Of a DNA stretch of 64,000 nucleotides, positions 2,255-32,062 are shown piece by piece. This stretch comes from Deltaproteobacteria bacterium. Lineage in GTDB: Bacteria; Desulfobacterota; GWC2-55-46. How positions within the stretch are numbered: position 1 is the stretch's first letter; each line of letters starts with the position of its first letter. The stretch is from positions 27,528 to 91,527 of the forward strand of contig JACRCJ010000286.1 in the NCBI GenBank assembly GCA_016219075.1. Reading direction: 5' to 3'. The notes below the pieces were generated by a model. The model saw nothing but the letters and a program-made list of their open reading frames with translations. It ran no database searches and had not been told where the DNA came from. Both the position numbers and the translations under genes were made by a program.

Positions 2255-2256
2255 AT

Positions 2257-2919: not shown

Positions 2920-4449
2920 ATGGACAGAGGGATAGATATCGTACTCATAAACCCCGGAGACAGAAAGCAGGTCTTTCAGGAGCTTGGAAGCGAGCTCGCC
3001 GCTATCGAGCCCCCTTTCTGGGTCGCGGTCATGGCCGCGTACTTAAGGAACTGCGGCTTCGATGTGAGGGTGATAGACTCCAACGCCGAGAACATCTCAC
3101 CCGAGGAGACCGCCGAAAGGGTAAATGCGCTCGCCCCGTTGCTCGCGGCGGTCATAGTCTACGGCTCACATCCGTCGGCCTCCACCCAGAACATGACCGT
3201 AGCCGGCAGGATCTGCACCGCGCTGAAACTGCACACGGGGGCGAAGGTGGCGATTGGCGGGCTCCACCCCTCGGCGCTGCCCAAAAGGACGCTACAGGAC
3301 GAGGACGCCGACTTTGTGATAGAGGGCGAGGGACCGCACACATTAAAAGGGCTTCTGGAGGCGCTCCGCTCGGGCGGAGATTATCAGGCGGTCCCGGGGC
3401 TGTGGTACTTCGAGGAGAACGAGGTAAAGCACAACCAGAAGGCCCCGCTCATAAAGGACCTCGACACCATCCTCCCCGTGGCGGCGTGGGACCTCCTCCC
3501 GATGGAGAAATACAGGGCGCATAACTGGCACTGCTTCGACGGCATCGAGGAAAGGATGCCGTACGGGGCGATATACACGAGCCTCGGCTGCCCCTATTCG
3601 TGCGTCTTCTGCTGCATAAACGCCCCTTTCGGGAAGCCTGGCATAAGGTTCAGGAGCCCGGAGGTAGTCGTCGAAGAGATCAGGGTGCTGGTCGAGAGGT
3701 ACGGAGTAAGCAATATCAAGATCGTAGACGAGCTTTTCATACTTAACGAAAAGCATTACATGGCCATAGCCGACCTGATAATCAAGAGCGGCTACAAGCT
3801 CAATATCTGGGCCTACGCGAGGGTCGATACCATCGACTTCGATAACCTCGATACCATCAAGAGGGCCGGGATAAACTGGCTCGGCCTCGGCATCGAATCC
3901 GCGAACGCCTCCGTAAGGGACGGGGCGAACAAGCAGATGAGGAAAAACGACATCAAGGAGGTCGTGAGGAGGATACAGGGTTCCGGCATAAGGGTCGGGG
4001 CCAACTACATCTTCGGGCTGCCCGACGACACCCTTGAGACCATGCAGGAGACCCTTGATATGGCGGTGGAGCTGAATACCGAGTGGGCCAACTTCTATTG
4101 CGCTATGGCTTACCCCGGCTCGAAACTCTACGAGACCGCCGTAAGGGAGGGCTGGGAGCTGCCCGAGGAGTGGCACGGCTTTTCACAGCTCTCGTACGAG
4201 ACACACCCGCTCCCGACGGGAAAAATCGGCGCGAAAGAGGTGCTGAAGTTCAGGGACGACGCCTTCCATAAGTATTTCGAGAGCGGGCGATATCTCAAGA
4301 TGGCGGAGGAGAGGTTCGGCCCATCCGTTGTGGAGCACGTCCGTAAGATGACATCCACAAGGCTCAAAAGAAAGATGCTCGACAGCAAGGAGAGCAGGCT
4401 GAACGAATCAATGCAAAGGTTTTCCTCATACAGGTCGAAGATACTTTAA
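2920..4449 (+). CDS. B12-binding domain radical SAM protein (class B rSAM) paralog 1
   Basis: N-terminal Rossmann-like B12-binding region (DIVLINPGD...VAVMAAYLRNCGFDVRVID). Radical SAM cysteine triad YTSLGCPYSCVFCC (CxxxCxxC). GGAGGG RBS 5-10 nt upstream of the ATG at 2920. The track ORF begins at a GTG at 2887. Confidence 0.8.
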   Translation: MDRGIDIVLINPGDRKQVFQELGSELAAIEPPFWVAVMAAYLRNCGFDVRVIDSNAENISPEETAERVNALAPLLAAVIVYGSHPSASTQNMTVAGRICTALKLHTGAKVAIGGLHPSALPKRTLQDEDADFVIEGEGPHTLKGLLEALRSGGDYQAVPGLWYFEENEVKHNQKAPLIKDLDTILPVAAWDLLPMEKYRAHNWHCFDGIEERMPYGAIYTSLGCPYSCVFCCINAPFGKPGIRFRSPEVVVEEIRVLVERYGVSNIKIVDELFILNEKHYMAIADLIIKSGYKLNIWAYARVDTIDFDNLDTIKRAGINWLGLGIESANASVRDGANKQMRKNDIKEVVRRIQGSGIRVGANYIFGLPDDTLETMQETLDMAVELNTEWANFYCAMAYPGSKLYETAVREGWELPEEWHGFSQLSYETHPLPTGKIGAKEVLKFRDDAFHKYFESGRYLKMAEERFGPSVVEHVRKMTSTRLKRKMLDSKESRLNESMQRFSSYRSKIL

Positions 4450-4453
4450 AACG

Positions 4454-7798: not shown

Positions 7799-7799
7799 G

Positions 7800-9011
7800 A
7801 TGATAGCAGGGAAATACGCGGTGCTCTCAACACTCAAGGACGGCTTCCTTAACGACCTCGGGAACGGCTACATAAGGGAGTTCGTCAATAACGGCGCGCT
7901 CTTCATCGACTACGAGGAGGAGTACCTGAAGCGCGGCAGCAAAAGGGTGCAGGAGCACATATTCGGGTCAATAAAGGAGCGCGGGATAGAAGCGCTCATC
8001 TATCAGGCTTCCCCGAGCGATTTTCACTTCAGCCTGGATTTTTTCAGAAAGCTCCAGGACAGGGTCTATACGGTCATGATGCTCGGTGATTCGGACCACT
8101 ACTTCGACATAAGGGATATCTACTACGCGCAATGCATGGACCTCGTGGTCGTCTACGACTGTCTGTCGAGGTACAGGTTCAGGCAGTACGGGATAGACTC
8201 AATCTCCTTTTACAGCTCCTTTGACATGAAAAAATACAAAAAGGCCGGGATGAAGAAAACCATCGACGTCTCTTTCGTGGGCGACGTGGCGAACAAGATA
8301 GAAAGGCAGGGCTACCTGGATTTCCTGCGGGATAACGGGGTGTCCGTGGAGGTCTTCGGCACGGGGACGAGGAACGGGCAGATAAGCCTCGATGAGATGG
8401 TAAGGGTCTTCAACTCCTCGAAGATAAACCTCAACTTCACGAAGATATCCCTCAGGAACGCCATAAGAAAGGAGCCGCTCATAAACCTGAGGCTCCGGCA
8501 GGTGAAGGGCAGGATCATCGAGGCCGCGCTCTGCGGCGGGTTCGTCCTCACGGAGTACGTGCCGGGTATAGAGGAGGTCTTCGAACCAGGCAGGGAAATC
8601 GCCGCCTTCGACTCCAGGGAGGAGATGCTGGAGAAGACGAGGTACTTCCTCCGCCACGATAAGGAGAGGGATGAGATAGCCTTCAACGGCTTTACGAGGG
8701 CAACGAGGGACTACGACGTCGAGAAGGCCATCCCCGCGCTTATCAGCAGGATCGATGATATGAGGGGGTGGGCGAAAAAAAAGCGGGGCGAGCTCCTCAT
8801 CGACCCTGCGTTTTCAAGGAACTTCGTAACGTTCAGGGCGGAGCTGATCTCCCGCCTCATAAAGCTCAAAAGGTGGGACCTCGCGGGAGAGGAGCTCGGC
8901 CTTATCTTCAAGGGCAGGGGCATAAACCTTAAAAAAGCCGCCGGGATTCTCCTTTTCAACTTTTTCCCGGCGCTTAAGAAGATATACCTGAGGCTCAATG
9001 ACGCCGCTTGA
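7800..9011 (+). CDS. CgeB-like glycosyltransferase (Glyco_trans_1_2 / DUF3880 family) paralog A
   Basis: Blocks SFVGD...YL..L...G..V..FG.G, SKINLNFTK and EAALCGGFVLTEY are typical of the CgeB/spore-maturation-protein GT1-like family. Paralogous to 10463-11716. Confidence 0.6.
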   Translation: MIAGKYAVLSTLKDGFLNDLGNGYIREFVNNGALFIDYEEEYLKRGSKRVQEHIFGSIKERGIEALIYQASPSDFHFSLDFFRKLQDRVYTVMMLGDSDHYFDIRDIYYAQCMDLVVVYDCLSRYRFRQYGIDSISFYSSFDMKKYKKAGMKKTIDVSFVGDVANKIERQGYLDFLRDNGVSVEVFGTGTRNGQISLDEMVRVFNSSKINLNFTKISLRNAIRKEPLINLRLRQVKGRIIEAALCGGFVLTEYVPGIEEVFEPGREIAAFDSREEMLEKTRYFLRHDKERDEIAFNGFTRATRDYDVEKAIPALISRIDDMRGWAKKKRGELLIDPAFSRNFVTFRAELISRLIKLKRWDLAGEELGLIFKGRGINLKKAAGILLFNFFPALKKIYLRLNDAA

Positions 9012-10506
9012 CATAAAAAAGGACTCGAAGCTCAAATCCGGGATGAACCTGATGATAGTGCAGTTCGCGCTGTACTTCATCCCTCTCATCACAATACCGT
9101 ATGTCGTAAAGACCGTCGGGATAGAGAACTACGGCAAGTACGTTTTCTTCCAGGCCGTGATGGGCCTTCTCGGCGTGATAATAAACTGGGGCTTCATACA
9201 GACCGGCGTGAGGGACATCTCGGTATGCAAGACCCTCGATGAGATTAACCGGGAATATTCGCACATACTCTACTCCAAGCTCCTGGCGCTTTTTATCGCG
9301 TGCGCCATCGGGTCCGCGCTTTTCCTCTTCGGGATGTTTAGGGCGGAGTGGGAGCTCTATTCGCTCTCGTTCCTGGCCCTTCCGGTCATCTTCCTCGATA
9401 CGGCATTCCTTTATCAGGGGATCGAGAAACTGAAGGACTTCGTCAATATCAGCCTCGCCGGAAACCTTTGCGTGCTCGCGCTCCTTTTCCTTACGGTCAG
9501 GGAAGAAGGCGACTACAGGCTCCTCCCGATGGTCTTCTCCGCGCCGAGGATACTGGCGTACCTGTTCTCAATCTACTTCCTCCACTACAGGTTCAGGATA
9601 GTACCGAATGCCTTCAGCTTGAGCGGCGTTTACGAGAAGCTCCGGAGCAACTTCAGCATCTTCGCCACGAACATCTCCGCGATACTTTATACAAGGGCGA
9701 CGCAGGTGATACTCGGCGTTGCCGCCGGCACGGAGTTCGTAGGCTACTACGCCGTGGCCGACCAGCTCGTATTCGCCTACTCAAACATACAGGGGAAGAT
9801 CTCCACCGTCTATCAGCCGCAGATAGCGCAGGCCTTCAAGGACGACTTCAACGAGGCCGTGGTAAAGGCCAGGGAGAACACCTGCATGATCTTTCTGGCC
9901 GCCATGGCCGGGTTCCTCTTCACCCAGTTCTTCGCCCCGGAGATTTTATATTTTCTCTTCAAGGACCGCGCCGCGGGCTCTGTCCATGTATTGAGGATAC
10001 TTTCCGTAAACTTCGTCACCATGCATCTGAGCTACATTATGGCCATGCAGATACTCCTTTCGCTCCACAGGGAATGGGAGATACTCAAGCCCTCGATATA
10101 CGCGGCTATTCTGAACCTTACGCTCGGGAGCGCCCTTATATACTTTTTCAGGCACACCGGCGCGGCCCTGTCGGTGGCGTTGATAGAGGTCATAATATGC
10201 GTTTACTTCTATCTGAAGGTAAAAGGCTACGGCATAGACGTGCTCGACAGAAAAATGTTGATGACGCTGCTTAACTTCGTTGTTTCACTTCTGTTCATAT
10301 TGTCGGGCCTGAAGTTCCTCTACGTAATTACGGACGTAAGCGTCTACGTCAAGTTCCCTCTCGTAACGGTGTTTTACGCGCTCTCGATACTCTTGGCGCT
10401 CAAGGCGCTGAATATCATCGACTTTAAAAAAAGGAAGCTGCTAATCGGACAGGTCGCTATCAATGATCAGGTCGAAAGTGAAGATACTCGTGCTGAACGT
10501 CCATAA
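8998..10506 (+). CDS. Wzx-type oligosaccharide flippase (MOP/polysaccharide biosynthesis protein family)
   Basis: 502 aa with ~12-14 predicted TM helices. N-terminal LMIVQFALYFIPLITIPYVVKTVGIENYGKY is characteristic of Wzx/RfbX flippases. Confidence 0.7.
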   Translation: MTPLDIKKDSKLKSGMNLMIVQFALYFIPLITIPYVVKTVGIENYGKYVFFQAVMGLLGVIINWGFIQTGVRDISVCKTLDEINREYSHILYSKLLALFIACAIGSALFLFGMFRAEWELYSLSFLALPVIFLDTAFLYQGIEKLKDFVNISLAGNLCVLALLFLTVREEGDYRLLPMVFSAPRILAYLFSIYFLHYRFRIVPNAFSLSGVYEKLRSNFSIFATNISAILYTRATQVILGVAAGTEFVGYYAVADQLVFAYSNIQGKISTVYQPQIAQAFKDDFNEAVVKARENTCMIFLAAMAGFLFTQFFAPEILYFLFKDRAAGSVHVLRILSVNFVTMHLSYIMAMQILLSLHREWEILKPSIYAAILNLTLGSALIYFFRHTGAALSVALIEVIICVYFYLKVKGYGIDVLDRKMLMTLLNFVVSLLFILSGLKFLYVITDVSVYVKFPLVTVFYALSILLALKALNIIDFKKRKLLIGQVAINDQVESEDTRAERP

Positions 10507-11716
10507 AAAGGACGGCCGCTCCATGAACGACTTCGCGGACTTCAACGCGATGCGGCTCATGGAGAGCTTCGGAGGGGGGCGCGTATTCTATTTCTCGGAC
10601 TCGGTGAACAACATCGGCATCAGGAGGACCGAGGAGGAGATAAGGAGGATAATAGCCGAAGAGGGCGTGTCCATCGTATTCTTCGCGCCTAACGGGGACA
10701 GCTACGAGCTCTCAATAGAGTTCTTTAAAGGATTGAAAAAAGACCTCGGCGTCAAGTGTGTCCTCTGGGTCCTCGATGACGAGATGATATTCGACGTGAT
10801 GAGCAAGTATTACTCACAGGCGTTCGACGCGGCGGTTACGACTGACTACTACGCTACATTCGCCTACCGTAAGCTCGGTCTCCCCGCGCTCTATTACTTC
10901 TCAAGCTACCTGAAGGCGGACCTCCACCCCGTCGATGTCGAAAGAGACATCCCGGTAAGTTTCATCGGGGACTGCGCGAAGGCCGACAGGATGGAGTACA
11001 TAAATTACCTCCGGGAGAATGGTGTAGACGCAAGGTCCTTCGGCGACGGTTCCGAGAAAGGGTTTCTGAGCAAGGCCGAGGTCCCTGCCATATATTCGAG
11101 GTCGAAGATAAACCTCAACTTCACAAAGGTCGACCATGCGGGCCCGGGCTCGTGGTTCCTCGCTGACAACGCCCTTACGAACATCATAAGGCAGAACAAG
11201 GGCCGGCCGATGGAGATAGCGCTTACACGGTCATTTTGCCTGAGCGAAACATCGCCTTCCATAGGTGTTGTCTTCGAGCAAGGCAAGGAGATAGATACTT
11301 TCCGGTGCAAAGAGGAGCTGCTCGCCAAAGTAAATCAGTACCTCAAGAACGACGGAGTCCGCGAGCGGATAGCGGAGGGCGCTTACAGGAAGGCCGTGAG
11401 CGAGTATGAGGCCGGGGTCTTTTTCCCCGCGCTTGCGGACAGGCTCTGCGCCGTCCTTGATGAAGGCAGGTATCTGCCGGAGTGTGAATGCATCCATAAA
11501 GACCCGGTCTTCAAAAAAAACCAGATGATAAGGCTTTCGATAGTAATGCTCTACCAGATGAGCAGGCTTAAGGCGCTCCCGGCCGCCGAAACTTTCAAGG
11601 AGCTTTTCCGGTACGGGATAATCGTGTTTTTATCCTCCTTCATCAGGGCGATTAAAATTTCTTTCCTTAAGCTCGTCCATAAAAAAAGGTCAAGGCGGCA
11701 TGGACTTCAGAAATAA
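10463..11716 (+). CDS. CgeB-like glycosyltransferase paralog B
   Basis: Shares SFIGDCAKADRMEYINYLRENGVD..FG.G and SKINLNFTKV blocks with 7800-9011. An alternative start at the ATG at 10523 would remove the overlap with wzx. Confidence 0.55.
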   Translation: MIRSKVKILVLNVHKKDGRSMNDFADFNAMRLMESFGGGRVFYFSDSVNNIGIRRTEEEIRRIIAEEGVSIVFFAPNGDSYELSIEFFKGLKKDLGVKCVLWVLDDEMIFDVMSKYYSQAFDAAVTTDYYATFAYRKLGLPALYYFSSYLKADLHPVDVERDIPVSFIGDCAKADRMEYINYLRENGVDARSFGDGSEKGFLSKAEVPAIYSRSKINLNFTKVDHAGPGSWFLADNALTNIIRQNKGRPMEIALTRSFCLSETSPSIGVVFEQGKEIDTFRCKEELLAKVNQYLKNDGVRERIAEGAYRKAVSEYEAGVFFPALADRLCAVLDEGRYLPECECIHKDPVFKKNQMIRLSIVMLYQMSRLKALPAAETFKELFRYGIIVFLSSFIRAIKISFLKLVHKKRSRRHGLQK

Positions 11717-12794
11717 AGAACTGAAGAAGATAAATATCCTTTTCATAGTGTCGATCCTCCCGCCCTATCCGGGCGGTGCGGCTGTCGACTACCGGAGCTT
11801 CCTCAAAGGCCTATCCGGGAGGGAAGACCTCTGCAATGTGAGCGTGCTTACCGAGAAGGGCTGCTCGAAGGATGTGGATAACGTCGCGTTCAGGGACACG
11901 CTCTTCAATTACGATTCGGCTGGCGCGGGGGCGAAGAGCCGCTTAAGGCAGGCCGCGAATTACCTTTTGATACTGTGGCGCATAATCTCGGCGAAAGAGG
12001 ACATAATCCATATCCACGCGAGGTACGTCTACGCAAAGTACGCCGGCAGGGTCATATGGCTGGCCTTATGGTTATCGCGGGCAAAAGCTGTGGTCGATAT
12101 AAGGGACAGGTTCTACGATAACTTCGGGTTCGGCCACCACTTCATCGTATGCTCGGAAGAGCTGCTCAAATATTATTCGTGGGTAAGGAACGCGTCCTGT
12201 CTGCCTGTGCCGGTCGAGGTCAGGGCCTCGGGGCGCAAGGCCCCTGGCAGGCATATCGCCTACTTCGGGTCCGTAGCGCGGAACAAAGGTATCCTTGAGC
12301 TTGTGGACGGGTTCAAGGAATACGTCAAAGCCAGCAAAGACCCGCTTGAGCTGCACATCTACGGCCACGATATGATCGGCGAGCAGTTCCTGAAAAACAT
12401 CGAAGGCGTGGACAGGATAAGGTTTTTCGGCCCCATACCGAATGAAGAGGTGGCGGAGAGGATATCGGAGTGCAGGGGCGTGGTCCTTCCGTCAAAGTCA
12501 GAGGGCATGCCGAGGGTCTGCCTCGAGACGATGATGCTGGGGCGGGTCCTCGCCTGCCACAGGAACGTCCGTTCGATATTCCCGTGCATACCCGGTGAGT
12601 TCGTGCTCGAAGACCTGACGCCTTCGGAGTTCAATAGGGTCTTGACGAACATAGAGGCCTCCGGCGGGCGCGCCTCGTATGATTACGACTTCTCTGTCCA
12701 TGCGCCGGAGAATGTCACGGAGAGGTTATTGGAGCTTTACAGTAATGTCCTGGGCTATACATATACAAGGGAGGGAGCATGCTTGTCTCAATAG
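11700..12794 (+). CDS. GT4/GT1-family glycosyltransferase
   Basis: C-terminal E-x7-E-like donor-binding block (LPSKSEGMPRVCLETMMLGRVL). Rossmann GT-B layout. Confidence 0.65.
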   Translation: MDFRNKELKKINILFIVSILPPYPGGAAVDYRSFLKGLSGREDLCNVSVLTEKGCSKDVDNVAFRDTLFNYDSAGAGAKSRLRQAANYLLILWRIISAKEDIIHIHARYVYAKYAGRVIWLALWLSRAKAVVDIRDRFYDNFGFGHHFIVCSEELLKYYSWVRNASCLPVPVEVRASGRKAPGRHIAYFGSVARNKGILELVDGFKEYVKASKDPLELHIYGHDMIGEQFLKNIEGVDRIRFFGPIPNEEVAERISECRGVVLPSKSEGMPRVCLETMMLGRVLACHRNVRSIFPCIPGEFVLEDLTPSEFNRVLTNIEASGGRASYDYDFSVHAPENVTERLLELYSNVLGYTYTREGACLSQ

Positions 12795-13792
12795 TATTAT
12801 CTTTCCGCAATGAGGAGGACAACATCCCCGAGCTCGTACGGAGGCTCCATTGCTCGCTCGGTTCTCTCAAACCGCTTGGGATCGAATACGAGCTCATATT
12901 CGTAAACGACGCCTCGACCGACGGGTCCCTCGAACTCCTGAATGCCCTTAAGGCCGGCGACAGCACGATAAAGATAATAAACATGTCGAGGCGCTTCGGC
13001 TCGACGCCCTGCGTGATCGCCGGCATGGAGCGATCTTCGGGGGACGCGGTCGTGTACATGGACACCGACCTCCAGGACCCGCCGGAGCTGATACCTGAGC
13101 TTGTAAAGAGGTGGCTCGAAGGCGCTGACGTCGTCTATACCACGAGGTTGACAAGGGACGGGGAGAGCCGCTTTAAGATGTGGCTGACCCGGAGGGCTTA
13201 CAGGACAATAAAATTCTTTTCCGACGTAGACATCCCGGTAGACTCCGGGGACTTCAAGCTCCTCGACAGAAGGGTGGTAAAAGAGCTGCTGAGGCTCAAG
13301 GAGAAGGACCCTTATATGAGGGGGCTCATAAGCTGGGTCGGGTTCAGGCACGCGCAGGTATTCTACGACAGGGAAAAGAGGTTCGCGGGGAGGACTCACT
13401 ACCCGCTCTTCGGTCTCGGGCCTTTGAGGGCATTTGTCTCCGGGCTCGCGTCGTTCTCGACAGCCCCACTGAGCCTCGCGCTCGTGATAGGCTTCCTCGT
13501 TTCAATCGGCGCTTTCTTCTTCCTCATAGACATCGTGATAGAGAAGTTCATGGGGAGGAACCTGCCGGGGTGGTCGGCGATAATGGCCACGATGCTCTTC
13601 CTCGGCGGCACCGAGCTTTTTACCATCGGGATACTCGGGATATATGTCGGCAGGATTTATAACGAGAACAAAAGGAGGCCTAATTACATAATCGAGAGCA
13701 CGTCCGGATTTGAGGAGGCGCGCCCCGCCGGGAAACGCTACAGGGTCTATGGACAGGCAGGGAAGGGGACGGTCAAGGACCTGAATGGCTGA
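12779..13792 (+). CDS. GT2 polyprenyl-phosphate glycosyltransferase (ArnC/GtrB/DPM1-like) with C-terminal TM helices
   Basis: VSIVLSFRNEEDNI...FVNDASTDGS...YMDTDLQDPPE (DxD) plus two C-terminal TM helices is the GtrB/ArnC architecture. Confidence 0.75.
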   Translation: MLVSIVLSFRNEEDNIPELVRRLHCSLGSLKPLGIEYELIFVNDASTDGSLELLNALKAGDSTIKIINMSRRFGSTPCVIAGMERSSGDAVVYMDTDLQDPPELIPELVKRWLEGADVVYTTRLTRDGESRFKMWLTRRAYRTIKFFSDVDIPVDSGDFKLLDRRVVKELLRLKEKDPYMRGLISWVGFRHAQVFYDREKRFAGRTHYPLFGLGPLRAFVSGLASFSTAPLSLALVIGFLVSIGAFFFLIDIVIEKFMGRNLPGWSAIMATMLFLGGTELFTIGILGIYVGRIYNENKRRPNYIIESTSGFEEARPAGKRYRVYGQAGKGTVKDLNG

Positions 13793-15392
13793 TAGACACT
13801 ACATATCGAGGCTGGCAAAAACGGCCGCACCTTACGCCGCGTACATCGCGCTCGCCTGTTTCTTTATCAAACAACCCCCGATGCACGAAGAGGTGATGCA
13901 CCTGAGGGACACTGGCAGCTGGGCCTCCGCGCTCTCGTACTCGTGCCACCCTCCGCTCTATGTGATGCTCGGGCGCATCGCGAGGATCATATTCGGCGAA
14001 GGCTACAGGGCGCTTTATATCCTCGGGATTTTTGCGGGGCTTATAAACCTGTACCTCATAGGCAGGATCATCAACGCCGTCCTTGAAGACCTGGGGGACA
14101 AAAAAGAGGCGTTCTCTCTCGCCGGAGTCTGGATAGCCGTGCTGATGCCAGTGTTTGTCCAGGGCTCGCTGCTGCTTGAGATCGAGCCGGCCGTGCTGAC
14201 GCCGCTATCGCTGCTCGCGCTATTGTACTACATCAGGAAAGAGGGGCGGGGCGGGACGGGTTTTTACGCCATGACCGGTGTTTTATTCGCTCTTACGATG
14301 TGGGCCAAATATTTCTTCACGCCTTTCCTGCTGATATTCTCGATATTCATATACGAGGCAACGGGAGGGAAGATGCTCAGGGACGCGCTCAGGTCTTCCG
14401 TGATAATGCTCGGCACGGCGCTCGCCATATTCGTTCCGACGTATCTTTTATATTCGAAGGCGTTCATAACCGGCGCCAACTCCTTTGCCTTCCTCGCCCT
14501 CGATAAGACGAAGGAGGGCGCGCCTTTATTCGCGTCATTAAAGATATTTTTCCCGATGGCCACGAAGCTCATGGCCCTGACGTTCTGGCTGAGCCCGTTT
14601 TTCATCGCGGCAGTCATCTGGCTCATGCGGAGGATCTTTCACGACAGGCAGACATTCAGGAAAGAAAGGCTCTTCGCCATAGCAACGGCGTGCATATTCG
14701 TCTTCTACCTGACCATGCACCCTTACCCGTTCGGTGAGTCCAAATACTTCTATCCGATCTTCCCGCTCCTCGCGGTTTTGGGATCGAGCCTGCTCGCGAG
14801 GTCAGGTTTAAGGCTGCCGCCACTCAGGTACGCGGTATTGATAATCCCGGCCACGGCCGTCATCTTCTTTACCATCGGCGACCCTCTGTACCAGGCTATC
14901 GGCCTTTACCGTAGCCTTTCGATGGGCAGGCTCTATCTATACGTCTTTTTTTACGCCTCGATAAACCTCGCGCTCTTCGGGGCGGCCTACGCAATATTCA
15001 ACGGGCGCGGCTTCAGCGCGTTCGGGTCATCGCTCGTATACCTTTCGATATGCTCGAGCCTGTCGCTCTTCGCCTCCCAGGCGATTGGCCAATACCAGAC
15101 AAGGAGCCAGTACGGGGAGAACGGCGCGCTTGAGACCGTCAGCTTCATAAGGTCCGGGGTCCCGTCGTCCAGCAGGGTCATCATCCCCGGCGATATCCGC
15201 TTTTATACGGAGATGGAGTTCGTAAAGGTGGGGGCGGTCTCAGAGGGCGCGGAGAGCATCGCCGAATGGGACTGGATAGTGGAAAGAAAGGCCAACATAC
15301 TCAGGCTCAAGCCTGAAGCGTCAAGCGCGCTGGTCTCGAACTACAGGCTCTTAAGGCATATAGGCTCATACGAGATTTACAGGCGGAGATAG
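13785..15392 (+). CDS. GT-C fold glycosyltransferase, ArnT/PMT (GT83/GT39)-like integral membrane protein
   Basis: Multi-TM protein with the HPPLYVML hallmark motif of ArnT/PMT-family transferases. Sits directly after the ArnC-like GT2, the canonical pairing. Confidence 0.65.
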   Translation: MADRHYISRLAKTAAPYAAYIALACFFIKQPPMHEEVMHLRDTGSWASALSYSCHPPLYVMLGRIARIIFGEGYRALYILGIFAGLINLYLIGRIINAVLEDLGDKKEAFSLAGVWIAVLMPVFVQGSLLLEIEPAVLTPLSLLALLYYIRKEGRGGTGFYAMTGVLFALTMWAKYFFTPFLLIFSIFIYEATGGKMLRDALRSSVIMLGTALAIFVPTYLLYSKAFITGANSFAFLALDKTKEGAPLFASLKIFFPMATKLMALTFWLSPFFIAAVIWLMRRIFHDRQTFRKERLFAIATACIFVFYLTMHPYPFGESKYFYPIFPLLAVLGSSLLARSGLRLPPLRYAVLIIPATAVIFFTIGDPLYQAIGLYRSLSMGRLYLYVFFYASINLALFGAAYAIFNGRGFSAFGSSLVYLSICSSLSLFASQAIGQYQTRSQYGENGALETVSFIRSGVPSSSRVIIPGDIRFYTEMEFVKVGAVSEGAESIAEWDWIVERKANILRLKPEASSALVSNYRLLRHIGSYEIYRRR

Positions 15393-15394
15393 CT

Positions 15395-16747
15395 ATGGAA
15401 CAGGCTGAGAGGGCGTATACCGGCATGGGGACGCGGGAGAGCACGGCGGGGCTTAATTTTACCGCGGTAGCCGTTTTTACGGTCTCTGTTTTCATACTCT
15501 CGAACGACAACAGCCTGAGGATCGCCTCGGTAAGCGTCTCAACCGCAGTTGCCTTCCTGATGCTCGCGGTCTTTTTGGTCAGCGGTTTGAAGAAAGGCAG
15601 GTTCATCCTCAAGGGACACGATGTGCAGAGGCCGCTGTTCCTCCTTTTCTTCTGGGCCGTTTTCTCTCTCATAATCGCCCGCCTCGACCCGTGGAAGGCG
15701 CTCCCGGAGGCCGCGTATTCCTACACATGGGCCAACGGGATGAACTCGCCGGCGTGGAGGGGGGCGTCTTTCTTACTACGGCTTTTCCTTTCCGTCTTCG
15801 CCATCGAGTTCATCATCTCGAACGTGGATACGAAAGAGAAGGTCTTCAGGGTCGTGAACATCACTTTAGCCGTATATTTCCTCGTATGCCTCTTCGGCCT
15901 CGCGCAGATAATCCTCTATTTTTTCTTCCACATCGAGGCGGGCAGCGTTTTGACCGAGCCGCACTTCCGGGCCGGGGGGTACGTGGGCGAGCCGCAGACC
16001 TACGGGATACTCCTCGTAAGCTCGCTCTTCCTCGTGATAGCCGCGGTCAACAAAAGATGCGAGGGGATTTACTTCTCAAGGCGCTTTCTTAAGATACTCC
16101 TTCTTATGGCTATCATAGACCTCGTCTTTACTTTTTCGGTTTCGATGTTCGTCTCGGTCCTTCTGGCGCTCTTGTTCCACAGCAATGAAATAAGGAAAAG
16201 GGGCCTTATCATCTTTTCGATAGCAGGCGGCGCGGCCGCCTACGCCTTTTACAGCTTCCTTAACTCGGTGCTGATAGCAAAGCTCGTAAGCGAGACCTTC
16301 ACCTACAACAGCAGGACCCTCACCTGGAATATCGGCGCCAAAATGCTCGGCGAGAACCCGATTGCGGGGGTCGGCATAGGGCAGTCGCCTTTGCTATCCG
16401 GGTATTTCTCGGAGCTTATAAACCTGAGCTTCGATTCTCTCAACTTCGACGCCTTCCGCGTCACCCTTCTTAATTCCTACATAGAATGGGGGGCCGAGAC
16501 AGGCATTGTCGGGCTTGCGGTGCTCCTGTACCTGATATACAGGTGCTATATGATTGGCAGGGCGCGCACGCAGAGCAAGGAGTTCAAGTTCGTAAGACTC
16601 GCGTACGGCGGGGCGCTCCTCGCGCTCGCGGTTTCCGCTAACTCGTACGGCGGGGTCTTCTACGTTGGGTGCTTCAACCTGGTCTTCGCCATGTATATAG
16701 CGGGGACGAGGGTCTTCAGCCGGGCGGCGGATGCGGCAGCTCTATAG
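15395..16747 (+). CDS. O-antigen ligase/polymerase family protein (Wzy_C domain)
   Basis: ~12 TM helices. Large loop ending LNSYIEWGAETGIVGLAVLLYLI matches the Wzy_C motif (H/N-N-S-Y-L..L.E.G..G). Confidence 0.6.
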   Translation: MEQAERAYTGMGTRESTAGLNFTAVAVFTVSVFILSNDNSLRIASVSVSTAVAFLMLAVFLVSGLKKGRFILKGHDVQRPLFLLFFWAVFSLIIARLDPWKALPEAAYSYTWANGMNSPAWRGASFLLRLFLSVFAIEFIISNVDTKEKVFRVVNITLAVYFLVCLFGLAQIILYFFFHIEAGSVLTEPHFRAGGYVGEPQTYGILLVSSLFLVIAAVNKRCEGIYFSRRFLKILLLMAIIDLVFTFSVSMFVSVLLALLFHSNEIRKRGLIIFSIAGGAAAYAFYSFLNSVLIAKLVSETFTYNSRTLTWNIGAKMLGENPIAGVGIGQSPLLSGYFSELINLSFDSLNFDAFRVTLLNSYIEWGAETGIVGLAVLLYLIYRCYMIGRARTQSKEFKFVRLAYGGALLALAVSANSYGGVFYVGCFNLVFAMYIAGTRVFSRAADAAAL

Positions 16748-17888
16748 ATATGCGGTATTCTTCTCCAGGACGCTGGCCCTTTCTTCAGGGTCTTTCACGC
16801 AGTCTCTGCTTCACGCGCTGTATGAGAGACATTACCCGGCGAGGAAACGGAAGGCCGGGGGAGAAATCAATATCCTTGTAGTCCAGCTCGGCCAGATAGG
16901 GGACTTTGTCCTCTCCGCCCCGCTCTTCGAGGCGCTTAAATCGACCTACGGCAAAAGGCTAAGGCTGACCGTAATGACCGATTCGATAAATAAGGACCTT
17001 GCCGGCATGGACATGAACATAGACAAGACCGTTTTTTATGACTCGCCGAGGTATTCACGGGTAAAGGGCGGCGGAAGCGTTTTCCCTTACGAGCGCCTTA
17101 AAGAAGGAAGGTTCGACGAGGTTATCTGGCTCAGGGGTGACATGAAGGTATTTATATGGATGGCCTCAAGAAGGGTCCCGATGAAGAGCATAATGAAGTT
17201 CCCGAACCCGCTACGCTCGTCATGGCTCGCGCTCATAACAGGACGGCCTTCCAAAAAAAAGGCGATGCATTACCTTGAGACACTCGACGAGGTGTGTAAA
17301 GACGCCAGCCCAAGCGGGCTATTCAGGGCGAAGGCAAGCAATGCGCCAGCCGCAGGCATGCGGGAAGTCATGATACACATCGGCTCCGGCAACGCCTTGA
17401 GGAGGTGGCCTGAGGAGAGGTTCTCGAAGCTCTGCTCGCTACTCGCCGGGCTTTCGCCTGATATCAGCGTCAGCCTTATCGGCTCAAAAGAGGACAGGCA
17501 GGCCGGCGAGCGCATAGCCACAGGGGCGGCCGCAAATGGCGCTCAAGGGGTCAGCAACCTCTGCGGGGCTTTCATGCTTACGGACCTGTACGAAAGGTTC
17601 AGGGCCGCCAGCCTTTACATCGGGTTCGACAGCGGCCCCATGCACATGGCGGCGAGCGCCGGGGCCCCGCTCATAGCGCTTATGGGCCCGCAGTCCCCGC
17701 AGGTCTTCGGCCCGCGCGGTCAGAACGTAAAAGTGATACACAAGGGGTTTCCCTGCTCACCGTGCTGGCAGTTCGGGTGCGTGCGTAACGATAACGGCGC
17801 GGGCGCGTGCGTGCTCGCGATAACCCCTGAGGAGGTCTTCAGGGAGGCCAGGGCTTTCCTGGAGGGTTCGGCTTCTTATGCGCATTGA
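16731..17888 (+). CDS. GT9 family glycosyltransferase (ADP-heptose:LPS heptosyltransferase-like)
   Basis: ILVVQLGQIGDFVLSAPLFEALK and GFDSGPMHMAASAGAPLIALMGP match the GT9 RfaF/WaaC signature blocks. Confidence 0.7.
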   Translation: MRQLYRYAVFFSRTLALSSGSFTQSLLHALYERHYPARKRKAGGEINILVVQLGQIGDFVLSAPLFEALKSTYGKRLRLTVMTDSINKDLAGMDMNIDKTVFYDSPRYSRVKGGGSVFPYERLKEGRFDEVIWLRGDMKVFIWMASRRVPMKSIMKFPNPLRSSWLALITGRPSKKKAMHYLETLDEVCKDASPSGLFRAKASNAPAAGMREVMIHIGSGNALRRWPEERFSKLCSLLAGLSPDISVSLIGSKEDRQAGERIATGAAANGAQGVSNLCGAFMLTDLYERFRAASLYIGFDSGPMHMAASAGAPLIALMGPQSPQVFGPRGQNVKVIHKGFPCSPCWQFGCVRNDNGAGACVLAITPEEVFREARAFLEGSASYAH

Positions 17889-18504
17889 CCCGAGGCTTTT
17901 ATTCCTCATGAGGAGGGCCTTTGAGGCAAAGGACGAGCGCTTCGGAGGTATCAATGCGCGCTTTCTGGATATCGGATGCGCTGACGGGAGTTTTATAAAT
18001 GCGGTGCTCGCCTCCGGCAAAAGCGGCGTGGAAATAGACGGGGTAGACGTGCCGTCCCGATGGCTCAAGGCCGCCTCAATCGGCGCCGGGTGCAGGCTCT
18101 ACGTACAGGACCTGCAGAAGGGAATAGGGGAGATGGAGCCGGGCAAATACCATATCGCGACGATGTGGGAGGTGGTGGAACATATTGAGAACGTCCATCA
18201 GTTCCTCCGCAACGCCAGCGAGCTCCTTGTCCCCGGGGGCGTTGCGCTTTTATCCACGCCGAACCTCCTGAGCCTGAGCCGCTTCGTAAAGGGGCAAAGG
18301 TGGGTGGGCACTTCAGAGCCTGACCATAAATACCTCTTCGACGCGAAGTCATTAAAGATGGTGCTTTCAAGGACCGGCTTTAGCGAAATAGACGTGAGGG
18401 GTTTTTTCCTGCCGTCGAAAGGCCCGTCTTTCGACCCGTGGAACAGGCTCCTTTCCATGTCGCCCGGAGGCGGGATGCTCTTTGCCAGGGCCTTAAAGGG
18501 GTAG
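17878..18504 (+). CDS. class I SAM-dependent methyltransferase
   Basis: FLDIGCADGSF (motif I, D/E-x-G-x-G-x-G-like). ~200 aa with a Rossmann MTase fold pattern. Confidence 0.6.
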   Translation: MRIDPRLLFLMRRAFEAKDERFGGINARFLDIGCADGSFINAVLASGKSGVEIDGVDVPSRWLKAASIGAGCRLYVQDLQKGIGEMEPGKYHIATMWEVVEHIENVHQFLRNASELLVPGGVALLSTPNLLSLSRFVKGQRWVGTSEPDHKYLFDAKSLKMVLSRTGFSEIDVRGFFLPSKGPSFDPWNRLLSMSPGGGMLFARALKG

Positions 18505-18573
18505 ATAGATAACGGCGCCCGGTCCTTTTGGAAAGACAAGGCGGCCCAAAGATAACCATAAAAGGATAAAACC

Positions 18574-20028
18574 ATGAAAAAGATACTCCTTGTATATAAC
18601 GTCTATTCAGATGAGCTCGGGTCGAGCCGCCCGCCGCTCGGCACGGGCTATCTCGCGCAGGCGCTCGAGGACGCGGGGGCCGAGTACGGCGTGGTTGACA
18701 TGAAGCTCGGCTACTCGGAGGAAGACGTCCTGAAAATGATCGAGGAAGGCGGCTATGACTGCGTGGGGACAACTGTCTATACGGTCGGGCACAAGAGGTT
18801 TTTCGGGCTCCTCGGTCTTATAAAGGACAGGTTCCCCTCCATCGAGACCCTTGCGGGGGGGCCGCATGTGACGATAATGGGCAGGAAAATACTGGAAGAG
18901 TACGGGAAGGTCGATTTCGCGTTCGCGGGAGAGTCTGAAGGCTCTCTTATACGGTTCCTTGAAGGCGGGGAACACAGGGATATCCCGGGGCTTATTTACA
19001 GGGATGGAGGGGAGGTCCTCTACCCGGTCCCGTTCACAAGGCCGGAGAATCTCGACGATATCGGATGGCCGAAGTACTCCGGGTTCGAGCTCGACAAATA
19101 CGCAAATGAAATGGGGGTCATCACATCGAGGGGGTGCCCTTACTCCTGCATCTTCTGCTCGGTCGGGCTCACGCTCGGCAAGAAGATAAGGACCCGCTCG
19201 ATAGAAAAGATAGGCGATGAGCTTGAGTACTGGTACTCGAAAGGCAGGAGGATTTTCAACTTCCTCGACGACAACTTCACCTTCTACAGCGAAAGGGTCT
19301 TCGCGCTTTGCGGCGAGATAGAGAAAAGAGGGCTCAAGGACCTGACACTGAGGGCGTCAAACGGCATAAGGGCCGACAAGATAAACAGGGAGATGCTCCT
19401 CAGGATGAAGGAGGCCGGGTTCAAAAGTTTCGGCATCGGCGTCGAGGCGGGGAACAACAAGGTGCTCAAGACGTTAAAGAAGGGCGAGACCATCGAGCAG
19501 ATAGAGGGCGCGATAAAGATGAGCTGCGAGCTGGGGTTCGAGGTATCGCTCTTTTTCGTCTACGGGGCCCCAGGGGAGACGGCCGAGGACATAGAGGACT
19601 CCATAAGGATTGCCGGGAAATATCCCGTCTTCAAGGCTGACTTCTACAACCTCATGCCGTTCCCGGGCACGGCCCTCTGGGACTGGGTCGAGGACAATAA
19701 CGCCTGGACGGACGAGCCCCTTGAGCTGCTGAACAGCATGGACAAGAACCTCAGGTTCTCTAAAAAGACCGGCAGGCCCTTTTTCGTCACAAGCGAGCTC
19801 AACGAGGAAGACAGGCAGAAGCTCGCCGGGAAGCTGCGGAAGGCGACTCTGCATATCCAGAGGAAGGGGATTGAAAAGGTCTTCGCAAGGTTCGGGGTAT
19901 TGAAATACCCGGCCGGTTATATCGGCTCTACAATGGTCTTCCAGCGGCTTTTTTTCAATAACAACAGGCTCAGGAAATTATCCGACAGGGTACGCTTTCA
20001 CTCAAAACCAAGGACAAAAGTAGATTAA
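18574..20028 (+). CDS. B12-binding domain radical SAM protein paralog 4
   Basis: MKKILLVYNV... B12-binding domain. ITSRGCPYSCIFCSV (CxxxCxxC). AAAGGATAAAACC RBS region before the ATG. Confidence 0.8.
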   Translation: MKKILLVYNVYSDELGSSRPPLGTGYLAQALEDAGAEYGVVDMKLGYSEEDVLKMIEEGGYDCVGTTVYTVGHKRFFGLLGLIKDRFPSIETLAGGPHVTIMGRKILEEYGKVDFAFAGESEGSLIRFLEGGEHRDIPGLIYRDGGEVLYPVPFTRPENLDDIGWPKYSGFELDKYANEMGVITSRGCPYSCIFCSVGLTLGKKIRTRSIEKIGDELEYWYSKGRRIFNFLDDNFTFYSERVFALCGEIEKRGLKDLTLRASNGIRADKINREMLLRMKEAGFKSFGIGVEAGNNKVLKTLKKGETIEQIEGAIKMSCELGFEVSLFFVYGAPGETAEDIEDSIRIAGKYPVFKADFYNLMPFPGTALWDWVEDNNAWTDEPLELLNSMDKNLRFSKKTGRPFFVTSELNEEDRQKLAGKLRKATLHIQRKGIEKVFARFGVLKYPAGYIGSTMVFQRLFFNNNRLRKLSDRVRFHSKPRTKVD

Positions 20029-20039
20029 GGGGGCGAATT

Positions 20040-21485
20040 ATGAAGATACTCATGCTCAACCCGCCGTTCCTTCCGAGGTTCTCAAGGTTCTCGCGGAGCC
20101 CCGCCGTGACAAGGAGCGGCACCATCTATTACCCGCTCTGGCACGCGTACGCCACGGGACTCCTTGAAAGGGAGGGGCACAGGGTGATGCTCCTTGACGC
20201 GCCTGCCGAGGGGCTTGGCGCGGACGAGTGCTACAGGATAGCGAAGGGGTTCTCGCCGGATATTACGGTGGTCTACACCTCAACGCCGTCCATCTACAAT
20301 GACGTAGAGATAGCCGGAGGTATTAAGGATATCCAGCCGAAGGGCGTTATTGTGCTCACCGGCCCCCATGTATCCGCCCTGCCTGAAGAATCCCTTGAGC
20401 TGGATAAAAGGGTCGATATCGTAGCGAGGGGCGAGTACGACCTTACAATAGCCGGGATAGCGAAGGCCATTGAAGAGGGCGAAGGCCTCGAATCGGTCAA
20501 AGGGATCACCTGGAGGTCGTCTTCGGGGATAACCTCAAACCCCGGCAGGGCCTTTATCGAGGACCTTGACTCGTTGCCTTTCGTATCGATGGTCTATAAA
20601 AAACACCTGAAGGTAGAGAACTACTTCTACGCGCACTGCAGGTACCCGGCCGTGTCGATATTCACGAGCAGGGGGTGCAACGCGCAGTGCTCCTACTGCG
20701 TCTATCCCCAGCAGATGTTCGGCAGGAAGCAGAGGCAGAGGAGCCCGGAGAGCATCGTAGCCGAGTTCGAATACATCGAAAAGGAACTGCCTCGGGTGAA
20801 AGAGGTCCTGATAGACGACGACACGTTCTCTTCCGACCAGTCGCATACGATGCAGTTCTGCGAGCTGATGATAAAAAAGGGGATAAGGGTGCCGTGGACA
20901 GCCGAGTGCAGGGCGAACCTGAAGTACGAGACGATGGCCATGATGAAACGCGCGGGTTGCAGGCTTATCGTCGTGGGCTTCGAGAGCGCGGACAACACGG
21001 TCCTTAAGAACATGAAGAAGGGCCTGAGCATCGATAGGATGAGGCTTTTCGCGTTCGAGGCCAGGAGGGCCGGGATCATGCTCCACGCCTGCTTCATGGC
21101 GGGCAACAAGGGGGACACCATCGGGACCCTCATGGAGTCCCTCCGGTTCGCCAGGGAAGTGAACGCCGATACGTGCCAGTTCTTCCCGCTCATGGTCTAC
21201 CCCGGCACCGAGAGCTACGATTGGGCGAAAAAGAGCGGGTATCTGAAGGAAAAGGACTTTAGCAGGTGGCTTACCCCGGACGGGCTGCATAACTGCGTGG
21301 TTTCCACGCCGGAATTGAGCGCAAAGGACGCGGTGGATTTCTGCGGCTACGCGAGGAGGAAGTATTACCTGGGGCCGGGGTACCTGAGCAGGAAGCTCCT
21401 CCAAATGATAAAGAGCCCCGGGGAGCTTAAAAAGACCGTGAAGTCCGCGAAGACCTTCGCGAAATACCTTCTGAAGGCGAATTGA
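20040..21485 (+). CDS. B12-binding domain radical SAM protein paralog 5
   Basis: MKILMLNPPF... B12-binding domain. FTSRGCNAQCSYCVYP (CxxxCxxC). AAGGGGG RBS. 11 nt after paralog 4. Confidence 0.8.
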   Translation: MKILMLNPPFLPRFSRFSRSPAVTRSGTIYYPLWHAYATGLLEREGHRVMLLDAPAEGLGADECYRIAKGFSPDITVVYTSTPSIYNDVEIAGGIKDIQPKGVIVLTGPHVSALPEESLELDKRVDIVARGEYDLTIAGIAKAIEEGEGLESVKGITWRSSSGITSNPGRAFIEDLDSLPFVSMVYKKHLKVENYFYAHCRYPAVSIFTSRGCNAQCSYCVYPQQMFGRKQRQRSPESIVAEFEYIEKELPRVKEVLIDDDTFSSDQSHTMQFCELMIKKGIRVPWTAECRANLKYETMAMMKRAGCRLIVVGFESADNTVLKNMKKGLSIDRMRLFAFEARRAGIMLHACFMAGNKGDTIGTLMESLRFAREVNADTCQFFPLMVYPGTESYDWAKKSGYLKEKDFSRWLTPDGLHNCVVSTPELSAKDAVDFCGYARRKYYLGPGYLSRKLLQMIKSPGELKKTVKSAKTFAKYLLKAN

Positions 21486-26851: not shown

Positions 26852-26957
26852 CGAGCGCATCTCCCGCTGCTTGCGGCGGGGTTCAGCGAGCGAATCGAAA
26901 TCGAAATTTCCTTATGTGTCGAAGATTCCCCGAAGAAAAGCTGCGGAGAGATTCAAC
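26840..26957 (+). repeat. ~118-nt intergenic repeat element, copy 1 (contains CCCCGCTG-CTTG-CGGCGGGG hairpin)
   Basis: Direct match (~88% identity by eye) to 51785-51898: GAACAC.CA.AGCGAGCGCAT.YCCCGCTG.TTGCGGCGGGGTT.AGCGAGCGAATCGAA...GTGTCGAAGATTCCCCG...GCTGCGG.GAGATTCAA. Confidence 0.8.
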
Positions 26958-26975
26958 AGGGTTTTCAGGGTATTG

Positions 26976-31851: not shown

Positions 31852-32062
31852 TCGTTGCCGTGAGCCTTAAAAAAATATTGACAACCCTGCCCTTATCTGA
31901 GAATATTATTGACTATGGTAATCTGAAACGCTTGGGGTGTCACACCGGGCGCAAAGGTACCTGGGCAGGTTTTGAAAAAAAGAATAAGGCCGTTAGTGTT
32001 ACAAGACCGCGCCTGCATACTTGATAGAGTACCTCAAGTTAGTCCAGCAACCCTTCAAAAAA

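Follow-up and report, generated by a model that had tools for sequence, protein, structure and literature searches.

Five radical SAM genes in a polysaccharide locus

The DNA analysed here (the window) comprises 64,000 nucleotides (nt) of contig JACRCJ010000286.1 from an uncultivated anaerobic deltaproteobacterium, represented at NCBI by a metagenome-assembled genome (MAG). Its first half carries a polysaccharide gene cluster that includes five genes for radical S-adenosylmethionine (SAM) enzymes with the domain architecture of class B, the cobalamin-dependent group. We call these genes R1 to R5 (Table 1). A reading made from the sequence only had placed them on the plus strand with gaps of 4 nt between R1 and R2, 0 nt between R2 and R3 and 11 nt between R4 and R5, and the open reading frames (ORFs) reproduce this arrangement. 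The start proposed for R1 was also right: the mechanical ORF opens at GTG 2887, and the ATG at 2920 has GGAGGG 5' of it and agrees with the deposited NCBI product MBI5469348.1 (509 amino acids, aa). R1, R2, R4, R5 and the membrane family 2 glycosyltransferase (GT2) that follows R5 are identical to NCBI proteins MBI5469348, -49, -60, -61 and -62, respectively, whose contig is 105,282 bp long.

Profile hidden Markov models confirm the predicted pairing of domains, as all five proteins exceed the Pfam gathering cutoffs for both the B12-binding domain (PF02310, 32.1 bits) and the radical SAM core (PF04055, 29.5 bits). Each protein contains a single CxxxCxxC motif, within the core TS[LKR]GC-x3-C-x2-C that had been read from the sequence: YTSLGCPYSCVFC in R1, FTSKGCVNRCTFC in R2, HTSRGCPYRCGFC in R3, ITSRGCPYSCIFC in R4 and FTSRGCNAQCSYC in R5. 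This motif is invariant across the family alignments. No hydrophobic segment is present in R1, R3, R4 or R5, and the one found in R2 is buried. Without transmembrane segments, R1 to R5 should act in the cytoplasm, before flipping of the repeat unit.

The five genes had been described as paralogous. Because their pairwise identity is 22–27%, the term holds only at the level of the superfamily, which counts 45,935 library representatives at E ≤ 0.001; as judged by sequence, R1 to R5 are not close duplicates from a recent tandem expansion. All five genes are intact. We compared them with a relative on one 25-kb Logan contig (loci L001 and L023), whose proteins are 86–92% identical to those of the window. 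The ratio of nonsynonymous to synonymous substitution rates (dN/dS) is 0.12 for R1, 0.12 for R2, 0.07 for R3 and 0.10 for R5, equal to or lower than the 0.11–0.22 of the neighbouring glycosyltransferase, flippase (Wzx) and polymerase (Wzy) genes. R1, R2, R3 and R5 are under purifying selection.

Conserved neighbourhoods and modules

Gene neighbourhoods were compared across a few dozen loci, on which all counts below rest. The window gene order recurs in the relative at 86–92% protein identity and in Nitrospirae and Elusimicrobia MAGs; in the Nitrospirae MAG it reads NusG-R2-GT1a-R3-Wzx-GT1b...PMT_2-Wzy-GT9-R4 (names as in Table 1). The arrangement is no product of chance, and the context of glycan genes recurs across several phyla.

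The families of R1 to R5 are highly conserved, that of R5 most of all. The relatives of R5 form at least 120 database clusters at 66–90% identity and extend, down to about 50% identity, to MAGs of Omnitrophota, Melioribacter, Thermodesulfobacteriota, Bdellovibrionota, Planctomycetota and Chloroflexota, with truncated matches in one Nitrospirae and one Deltaproteobacteria MAG. The search found 17 genome loci, of which 13 were assessable downstream of R5. A GT2 orthologue (218–536 bits) lies directly 3' of R5 in 10 of these 13, a weaker GT2 in two and none in one. The R5-GT2 pair is carried by Omnitrophota, Melioribacter, Smithella, Thermodesulfobacteriota, Bacteriovoracaceae and unclassified bacterial MAGs. 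R5 loci always stand among polysaccharide genes, and a PglF-like dehydratase and an initiating transferase often adjoin.

Lawsonia intracellularis carries an R5-like gene (47.5% identity) on its plasmid 1 (NC_008012, 27 kb; L038 9531-10994). Around it are five class I methyltransferase genes, another radical SAM gene, GT2 genes and heptose-pathway-like SIS, HAD-IIIA and GHMP-kinase genes. Within the R5/HpnJ-like group, some representatives (P0372, P0377, P0422, P0431, P0460 and others) belong to much longer proteins of 700–2600 aa, in several of which at least two stretches match; such fusions might reveal functional partners.

R1 and R2 form a second module. Their orthologues are adjacent in L023, in L024 (Elusimicrobia; 816 bits each) and in L026 (856 and 963 bits). 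The R2 family, with identities of 43–88% in Deltaproteobacteria, Nitrospirae and Elusimicrobia, is narrower than that of R5. A metagenome scan with R2 returned one true relative, L026; the 11 other loci were rejected as generic radical SAM matches at 23–28% identity. A PF13524 glycosyltransferase-like gene is close to R2 and/or R3 in every locus examined, and the orthologue of the window's GT1a adjoins R2 or R3 in L024, L026, L040 and L042.

In L023, L024 and L026 the R1-R2 pair is preceded by short-chain dehydrogenases/reductases (SDRs) resembling GDP-fucose synthase (Fcl) and by a split thiamine-dependent enzyme. L024 has in addition HddC-like, HddA-like and RfbH-like genes 5' of the pair, and its upstream genes have the make-up of a GDP-sugar deoxygenation and branching block. 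The upstream part of L023 (1-5685) contains an SDR epimerase/dehydratase, an Fcl-like SDR, a pair of thiamine enzymes resembling the alpha and beta subunits of pyruvate dehydrogenase E1 (PDH-E1) and a DJ-1/PfpI protein; this set would suit a branched-chain GDP-sugar pathway. In other pathways PDH-E1-like thiamine enzymes attach two-carbon branches to keto-sugars, and the GDP-sugar block with its E1-like pair suggests C-branched sugars independently of the radical SAM genes.

R3 and R4 come and go. R3 is present in L023, L042 and L043 and absent in L024 and L026. R4 orthologues (935, 761 and 534 bits) follow the family 9 glycosyltransferase (GT9), with the methyltransferase gene MT in between in L021 and L022 and directly in L042. 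R4 is absent in L001, whose R5 is 90% identical and in which only a 48-nt spacer (L001 9953-10000) separates MT from R5. A comparison of window 18505-20039 with this spacer presents R4 as a presence/absence polymorphism. A further locus related to a Nitrospirae MAG, L040 (1-21725; ENA ERZ27254744 k141_1395861), holds at least eight radical SAM genes in 21.7 kb, most with B12-binding domains. Between them lie genes for PF13524 and GT4 glycosyltransferases, an SDR, an asparagine synthase, a methyltransferase and an ABC exporter, and L040 is a denser version of the same radical SAM/glycosyltransferase theme.

These comparisons point to a recurrent locus type built from modules: R1 with R2 (together with GDP-sugar tailoring genes, PF13524 glycosyltransferases and Wzx), R5 with GT2, and R3 and R4 as variable additions. 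The sequence-only reading had dedicated all five enzymes to one glycan. The association with glycan genes is indeed conserved across phyla, but the five are not one co-inherited set. Dedication of R1 to R5 to glycan tailoring nevertheless appears the best reading.

Anaerobes are rich in class B radical SAM genes, which could in principle have been inserted in a variable polysaccharide island without serving it. The gain and loss of R3 and R4 between relatives, the size of the superfamily and a locus end marked by a tRNA gene, as variable islands typically show, are in line with such an incidental location. On the opposite side, the same gene order is found in different phyla, gaps of 0–11 nt and overlaps point to co-transcription, the glycosyltransferase genes are under no stronger purifying selection and R5 adjoins GT2 in most assessable genomes. 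Because of this conserved synteny, gene packing and selection, we consider incidental co-location very unlikely, to the point of being hardly credible.

Placement among characterised enzymes and folds

To place the proteins among class B reference enzymes (GenK, Fom3, TsrM, OxsB) we used NCBIfam scores as a proxy for phylogeny. R5 aligns over its full length with the HpnJ model (TIGR03471) at 400.7 bits against a cutoff of 577.6, and its next-best family scores 140. It also aligns over the full length with a genuine HpnJ from Mycetohabitans (35% identity, E 5e-100). By these measures the family of R5 is a putative sister to that of HpnJ, which contracts a ring in hopanoid synthesis. The other proteins are more distant. 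R1 scores best with BchE (164 bits) and HpnJ (160.9 bits), far below both cutoffs, R2, R3 and R4 score 83–122 bits with the HpnJ model, and the best match of R3 is ApyD (155 bits against a cutoff of 750). Across R1 to R5, BchE (TIGR02026) gives 123–164 bits against 481. The AprD4 family (NF033070, cutoff 500) gives 81.7 bits for R5, 74.8 for R1, 70.3 for R4, 52.1 for R3 and 41.0 for R2. TIGR04295 ('B12_rSAM_oligo') is likewise a class B family, but it has none of the five as a member: its cutoff is 400 bits, and R1, which comes closest, reaches 107.

AprD4, an enzyme of apramycin biosynthesis, catalyses a 1,2-diol dehydration on the glucosamine ring of paromamine. In a sequence search of the PDB it is the top match for R5 (76 bits) and R1 (56 bits), while for R3 MgmA, TokK and CysS rank ahead of it. 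AlphaFold2 models were obtained for R2 and R5, with predicted local distance difference test (pLDDT) values of 92.6 and 86.6. The best folds for R2 are TsrM, MgmA, CysS, OxsB and AprD4. The best match of R5 is AprD4 (template modelling score 0.74–0.78, root-mean-square deviation 4.0 Å, 24% identity), ahead of TsrM, MgmA, OxsB, CysS and TokK. In these models, R2 and R5 adopt an overall fold like that of the solved cobalamin-dependent members, with a Foldseek probability of 1.00 for TsrM, MgmA, OxsB and CysS in both cases and for TokK with R5.

The reaction proposed for HpnJ is a contraction of the glucosamine ring in bacteriohopanetetrol glucosamine (PMC9204698). R5 resembles HpnJ in its full-length alignment, in the location of the radical SAM gene beside a membrane GT2, as in the hpnI-hpnJ-hpnK operon, and in a presumed lipid-linked sugar substrate. 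AprD4 (PDB 6fd2), the best solved match to R5, has the same Rossmann-like N-terminal domain and radical SAM barrel and acts on a glucosamine ring, but its substrate is a soluble aminoglycoside and it works with a partner reductase, AprD3, that has no obvious counterpart beside R5.

These relationships bear on the type of reaction. If all five proteins were cobalamin-dependent C-methyltransferases with chemistry of the GenK/MoeK5 type, the locus would produce several C-methyl or iteratively alkylated sugars, either lipid- or nucleotide-linked. Methylation is the commonest class B reaction; GenK, Fms7 and MoeK5 methylate sugar carbons, and MoeK5 clusters with HpnJ in a published similarity network (PMC9204698). 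All five proteins pass the Pfam B12-binding threshold, and the methylases TokK, CysS, TsrM and MgmA are among the best structural or sequence matches of R2 and R3. As judged from their descriptions, GenK, GenD1, Fms7 and MoeK5 share the architecture and the sugar-carbon substrates, MoeK5 acting on a lipid-linked oligosaccharide, but they belong to actinomycete antibiotic pathways and not to surface-polysaccharide loci. None of these four is found among the NCBIfam families listed for the five proteins. No methylase family cutoff is reached, since HpnR, KedN5 and TsrM-type models give 23–101 bits against cutoffs of 500–700, and the locus already has a separate class I methyltransferase. HpnJ and AprD4, the nearest characterised relatives of R5, do not methylate but rearrange or dehydrate the ring of a glucosamine, and the C-methylation put forward earlier amounts to a guess. 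We regard methylation by all five as possible, although on the unlikely side. By analogy, C-methylation is less well supported for R5 than a rearrangement or dehydration, without methylation, of the ring in a lipid-linked hexosamine.

A second question is the use of cobalamin. AprD4 has the same Rossmann-like domain and yet does not bind cobalamin (PMC12931638). The Pfam match is therefore no proof of cobalamin use: the five proteins are cobalamin-binding by prediction from that Pfam domain, and the best structural match of R5 binds none. We infer cobalamin use by R1 to R5 from their domain content. Should the Rossmann domains of some or all be vestigial, as in AprD4, these enzymes would be cobalamin-independent dehydratases, epimerases or dehydrogenases, and the products would be deoxy or keto sugars and not C-C modified ones. 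The rank of AprD4 among the matches of R5 and R1 favours this, as does the B12-domain score of R2, the weakest of the five at 41.8 bits. However, the NCBIfam AprD4 model yields just 41–82 bits, no AprD3-like partner is evident beside R5, TsrM and OxsB (crystallised with cobalamin) rank above AprD4 among the structural matches of R2, and the methylases MgmA, TokK and CysS do so among the sequence matches of R3. Loss of cobalamin binding is in our opinion unlikely.

The surrounding Wzx/Wzy locus

The radical SAM genes belong to an array of 23 co-directional plus-strand genes that extends from position 2 to 31851, the first 31.9 kb of the window (Table 1). Embedding among glycosyltransferases, a flippase and a polymerase had been recognised from the sequence, and the annotation bears it out. 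The extent given for the cluster, 2920-21485, covers the five genes but falls short of the locus, whose genes reach beyond the 5' edge of the window and, at the other end, extend to 31851. All junctions of the array overlap or are at most 33 nt long, except those from MT to R4 (69 nt) and from the WecA-like to the PglF-like gene (194 nt). The gaps of 0–11 nt and the overlaps indicate co-transcription. Promoter and terminator scans gave counts near shuffle expectation and were uninformative.

Table 1 Genes of the array, with Pfam (PF) and NCBIfam scores in bits; HexNAc, N-acetylhexosamine.
Feature	Coordinates	Strand	Evidence
C-terminal cupin half of a 570-aa GDP-fucose-synthase-like SDR-cupin fusion	2..688	+	Cut by window start; end-to-end alignment with C-terminus of L023 protein
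GD_AH (galactarate/altronate-dehydratase-family) sugar-acid dehydratase	692..2254	+	PF20629 278.7, PF04295 117.3; TIGR03248 279 vs cutoff 731
HAD-IA phosphatase (beta-phosphoglucomutase-like)	2227..2886	+	PF13419 114; dN/dS 0.05 vs L023
R1, class-B-architecture radical SAM, 509 aa	2920..4449	+	PF02310 62.4, PF04055 74.4
R2, class-B-architecture radical SAM with helical C-terminal extension, 575 aa	4454..6181	+	PF02310 41.8, PF04055 82.7
R3, accessory class-B-architecture radical SAM, 538 aa	6182..7798	+	PF02310 67.3, PF04055 81.5
GT1a, PF13524 (Glyco_trans_1_2) glycosyltransferase-like	7800..9011	+	PF13524 93.8; no relative by sequence in the PDB
Wzx flippase	8998..10506	+	PF01943 74.1; ten hydrophobic segments
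GT1b, PF13524 glycosyltransferase-like	10463..11716	+	PF13524 56.2; after Wzx also in L024, L026, L042
GT1-type (GT-B fold) glycosyltransferase	11700..12794	+	PF13692 49.6, PF00534 42.6
GT2 polyprenyl-phosphate glycosyltransferase (PgfS/ArnC-like)	12779..13792	+	PF00535 96; PgfS 228, ArnC 137, both below cutoff
PMT_2 (ArnT-like GT-C) membrane glycosyltransferase	13785..15392	+	PF13231 31; seven hydrophobic segments
Wzy-type polymerase or O-antigen-ligase-family protein	15395..16747	+	PF04932 34.4 vs cutoff 31.7 (marginal); nine hydrophobic segments
GT9 (heptosyltransferase-family) glycosyltransferase	16731..17888	+	PF01075 79.6; TIGR02195 97 vs cutoff 134.6
MT, class I SAM-dependent methyltransferase	17878..18504	+	PF13489 73.6
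R4, accessory class-B-architecture radical SAM, 484 aa	18574..20028	+	PF02310 56.6, PF04055 93.4
R5, HpnJ-like radical SAM, 481 aa	20040..21485	+	PF02310 46.5, PF04055 59.9
Membrane GT2 (PgaC/NodC-like), R5 partner	21492..22658	+	PF00535, PF13641, PF13632; hydrophobic segments at residues 1-21, 319-343
WecA/MraY-family polyprenyl-phosphate HexNAc-1-P transferase (initiating enzyme)	22529..23617	+	PF00953 81; TIGR02380 83.6, below cutoff
PglF/CapD-like membrane UDP-HexNAc 4,6-dehydratase	23812..25854	+	PF02719 367; PseB 184, below cutoff
Wzz-type chain-length determinant (polysaccharide co-polymerase)	25739..26851	+	PF02706 47.1
Wza-type outer-membrane polysaccharide export protein, multiple SLBB	26832..30179	+	PF02563 63.6, PF10531 202 (6 stretches), PF22461 138.7
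Wzi capsule-assembly outer-membrane protein, last gene of array	30169..31851	+	PF14052 287.4

A flippase, a polymerase, an initiating phosphoglycosyltransferase, a co-polymerase and an outer-membrane exporter are all found by Pfam in this one locus (the Wzy_C match being marginal), and the gene content is that of a complete Wzx/Wzy-type capsule or exopolysaccharide system. The GT2 partner of R5 is probably membrane-anchored, with hydrophobic segments near both ends. As a counterpart of HpnI it was ruled out: the identity is 20%, and the HpnI model is missing from its NCBIfam matches. The PMT_2 protein is likely the periplasmic partner of the polyprenyl-phosphate GT2 encoded before it. As listed, the WecA-like gene (GTG 22529) shares 130 nt with the gene before it and Wzz (ATG 25739) shares 116 nt, and the true starts are probably further downstream.

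At the 5' end, the complete 570-aa SDR-cupin protein is seen in L023, where it has a Pfam Epimerase match and scores 424 bits with the NCBIfam GDP-L-fucose synthase model (cutoff 500). The sugar-acid dehydratase is kept in L023 and L026. The GDP-sugar block can be read from relatives only, because the window starts inside it.

The gene content also bears on whether the five enzymes act on a sugar at all. Their target could instead be something other than a sugar that the locus also makes, for example a lipid anchor, a hopanoid-like lipid or a substituent of the amino-acid or phosphonate type. Models of HpnJ, BchE, ladderane and P-methylase enzymes are among the matches of several of the five, and related loci contain asparagine synthase-like and ABC-exporter genes. 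Yet all those scores are far below cutoff, every relative lies in a context of sugar-nucleotide, glycosyltransferase and flippase genes, and Pfam detects no squalene-hopene cyclase, phosphoenolpyruvate (PEP) mutase or lipid-synthesis gene among the 42 larger ORFs of the window. A non-sugar target is, in our view, rather improbable. Its specific hopanoid or phosphonate form was rejected, with neither the cyclase nor PEP mutase among the larger ORFs and P-methylase models at 90–125 bits against cutoffs of 575–600.

A tRNA-Arg(CCT) gene lies at 32078-32154, 226 nt 3' of the end of the array, and GC content falls to 0.51–0.53 after it. It is followed by an HDOD protein (32827-33693, minus strand), a second PMT_2 GT-C glycosyltransferase (34028-35497, plus strand) and a XerC/D-like tyrosine recombinase (35755-36675, minus strand); the interval 31851-36675 may be an island boundary. 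The remainder of the window, 36641 to 63852, carries housekeeping genes on the minus strand: GlnD, an AmiC-type amidase, MutS, GH57, BamB, a MiaB-type radical SAM methylthiotransferase (50422-51774), a type IV pilus block of PilM/N/O and a secretin (52719-56605) and pseudopilin-like genes (61590-63852).

Proposed pathway

Based on these results, we propose a Wzx/Wzy-dependent capsule or exopolysaccharide locus in which five radical SAM enzymes of class B architecture, soluble and located in the cytoplasm, tailor the repeat unit; they are organised in separate modules. We put the probability of this reading at roughly 70%. The most likely substrates of the cytoplasmic R1 to R5 are nucleotide- or undecaprenyl-linked sugars; these substrates, like the reaction types that follow, we infer from domains, relatives and neighbouring genes. 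The domain architecture, the intact state of the genes, selection, operon-like packing, conserved synteny and modularity are direct observations.

Assembly of the unit on undecaprenyl phosphate would begin with the WecA-like enzyme, which would use a sugar that the PglF-like dehydratase has processed. The membrane GT2 would add a hexosamine or hexose to the undecaprenyl-linked intermediate, and R5 would abstract a ring hydrogen and then rearrange or deoxygenate the ring. By analogy with HpnJ and AprD4, this sequence is most likely for R5, in preference to methylation. The GDP-sugar block (Fcl-like reductase/epimerases, the PDH-E1-like pair, the sugar-acid dehydratase and the HAD phosphatase) together with R1, R2 and, in this locus, R3 would produce an unusual deoxy or branched sugar, the most likely target of R1, R2 and R3 being unactivated carbons of this sugar in nucleotide-activated or lipid-linked form. 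The PF13524 enzymes would transfer the product. GT9, the methyltransferase and R4 would add and decorate a further residue, with R4 as an optional step. All steps catalysed by R1 to R5 would precede flipping by Wzx. On the periplasmic side, the polyprenyl-phosphate GT2/GT-C pair may add a side sugar, Wzy would polymerise the units, and Wzz, Wza and Wzi would export and anchor the polymer.

Several observations weigh against this proposal. None of R1 to R5 reaches any NCBIfam equivalog cutoff. AprD4 is the solved structure closest to R5 and, as said, binds no cobalamin, and an Rfam scan of the window found a tRNA only, with no cobalamin riboswitch or other cluster-linked element. The GDP-sugar block is known only from the relatives L023, L026 and L024. 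The R5-like gene of Lawsonia is followed by methyltransferases and not by a GT2. The analogy with the HpnI/J/K pathway is incomplete, as the GT2 is not an HpnI orthologue and an HpnK-type deacetylase is missing. R5 differs from HpnJ in further respects: it stays below the HpnJ cutoff, its GT2 is encoded downstream, whereas hpnI lies upstream of hpnJ, neither HpnK nor hopanoid genes are present in the window or in related loci, the relatives of R5 all stand in a Wzx/Wzy polysaccharide context, and the reaction of HpnJ is itself only a proposed one. Finally, Cys307, Cys351 and Cys435 of R5 are kept in almost all members of its family, including the Lawsonia protein and most members at about 50% identity, and are replaced in HpnJ. 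This hints at a chemistry differing from that of HpnJ, in which these residues may provide a hydrogen-donor cysteine or an extra metal site. An auxiliary Fe-S cluster was considered and set aside, as R5 offers just three scattered family-specific cysteines without a motif.

A bolder version of the tailoring proposal is also conceivable. R5-GT2 would then be a widespread unrecognised two-enzyme module. In many phyla of anaerobes it would place a hexosamine that is ring-contracted (cyclitol/carbasugar-type) or radically deoxygenated close to the reducing end of surface polysaccharides. The locus as a whole would make a capsule with several radical C-C/C-H modifications, including a thiamine-dependent branch elaborated by R1 and R2, a class of glycan chemistry without a characterised example. 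At present we hold this version to be quite doubtful.

Novelty and significance

Sugar tailoring by radical SAM enzymes is known from antibiotics (gentamicin, apramycin, moenomycin) and hopanoid head groups. To our knowledge, it has not been described for capsules, O-antigens or exopolysaccharides. A full-text literature search turned up no work on radical SAM enzymes of the B12 type encoded in surface-polysaccharide loci, in agreement with the earlier statement that such chemistry is essentially uncharacterised there. The findings present uncharacterised enzyme families in a new biosynthetic setting and not a new category.

The nearest published genomic precedent, biochemically uncharacterised, is plasmid pBHWA1 of Brachyspira hyodysenteriae, which is linked to virulence and has many radical SAM genes amid glycosyltransferases, HAD hydrolases, epimerases and rfb genes (PMC4267127). 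Its annotation lists seven radical SAM or SPASM-domain genes, and the table of the 2014 paper (PMC4267127) six. Their radical SAM/SPASM proteins differ from R1 to R5 in length: at 330–400 aa they are too short for an added N-terminal B12-type domain. As homologues of R1 to R5 they were rejected, with no similarity at E ≤ 1e-5.

The highly conserved R5-GT2 module is a particularly good experimental lead, and the R5 homologue that Lawsonia intracellularis carries on its plasmid opens the way to work in a cultured (intracellular) pathogen. If R1 to R5 do tailor the polymer, carbohydrate chemistry would gain new biocatalysts for C-H functionalisation, and anaerobes would display sugars beyond current glycan databases, lectins and phage receptor models. 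The recurrence of these radical SAM families in polysaccharide clusters of several phyla points to a sugar chemistry so far uncharacterised in bacterial capsules.

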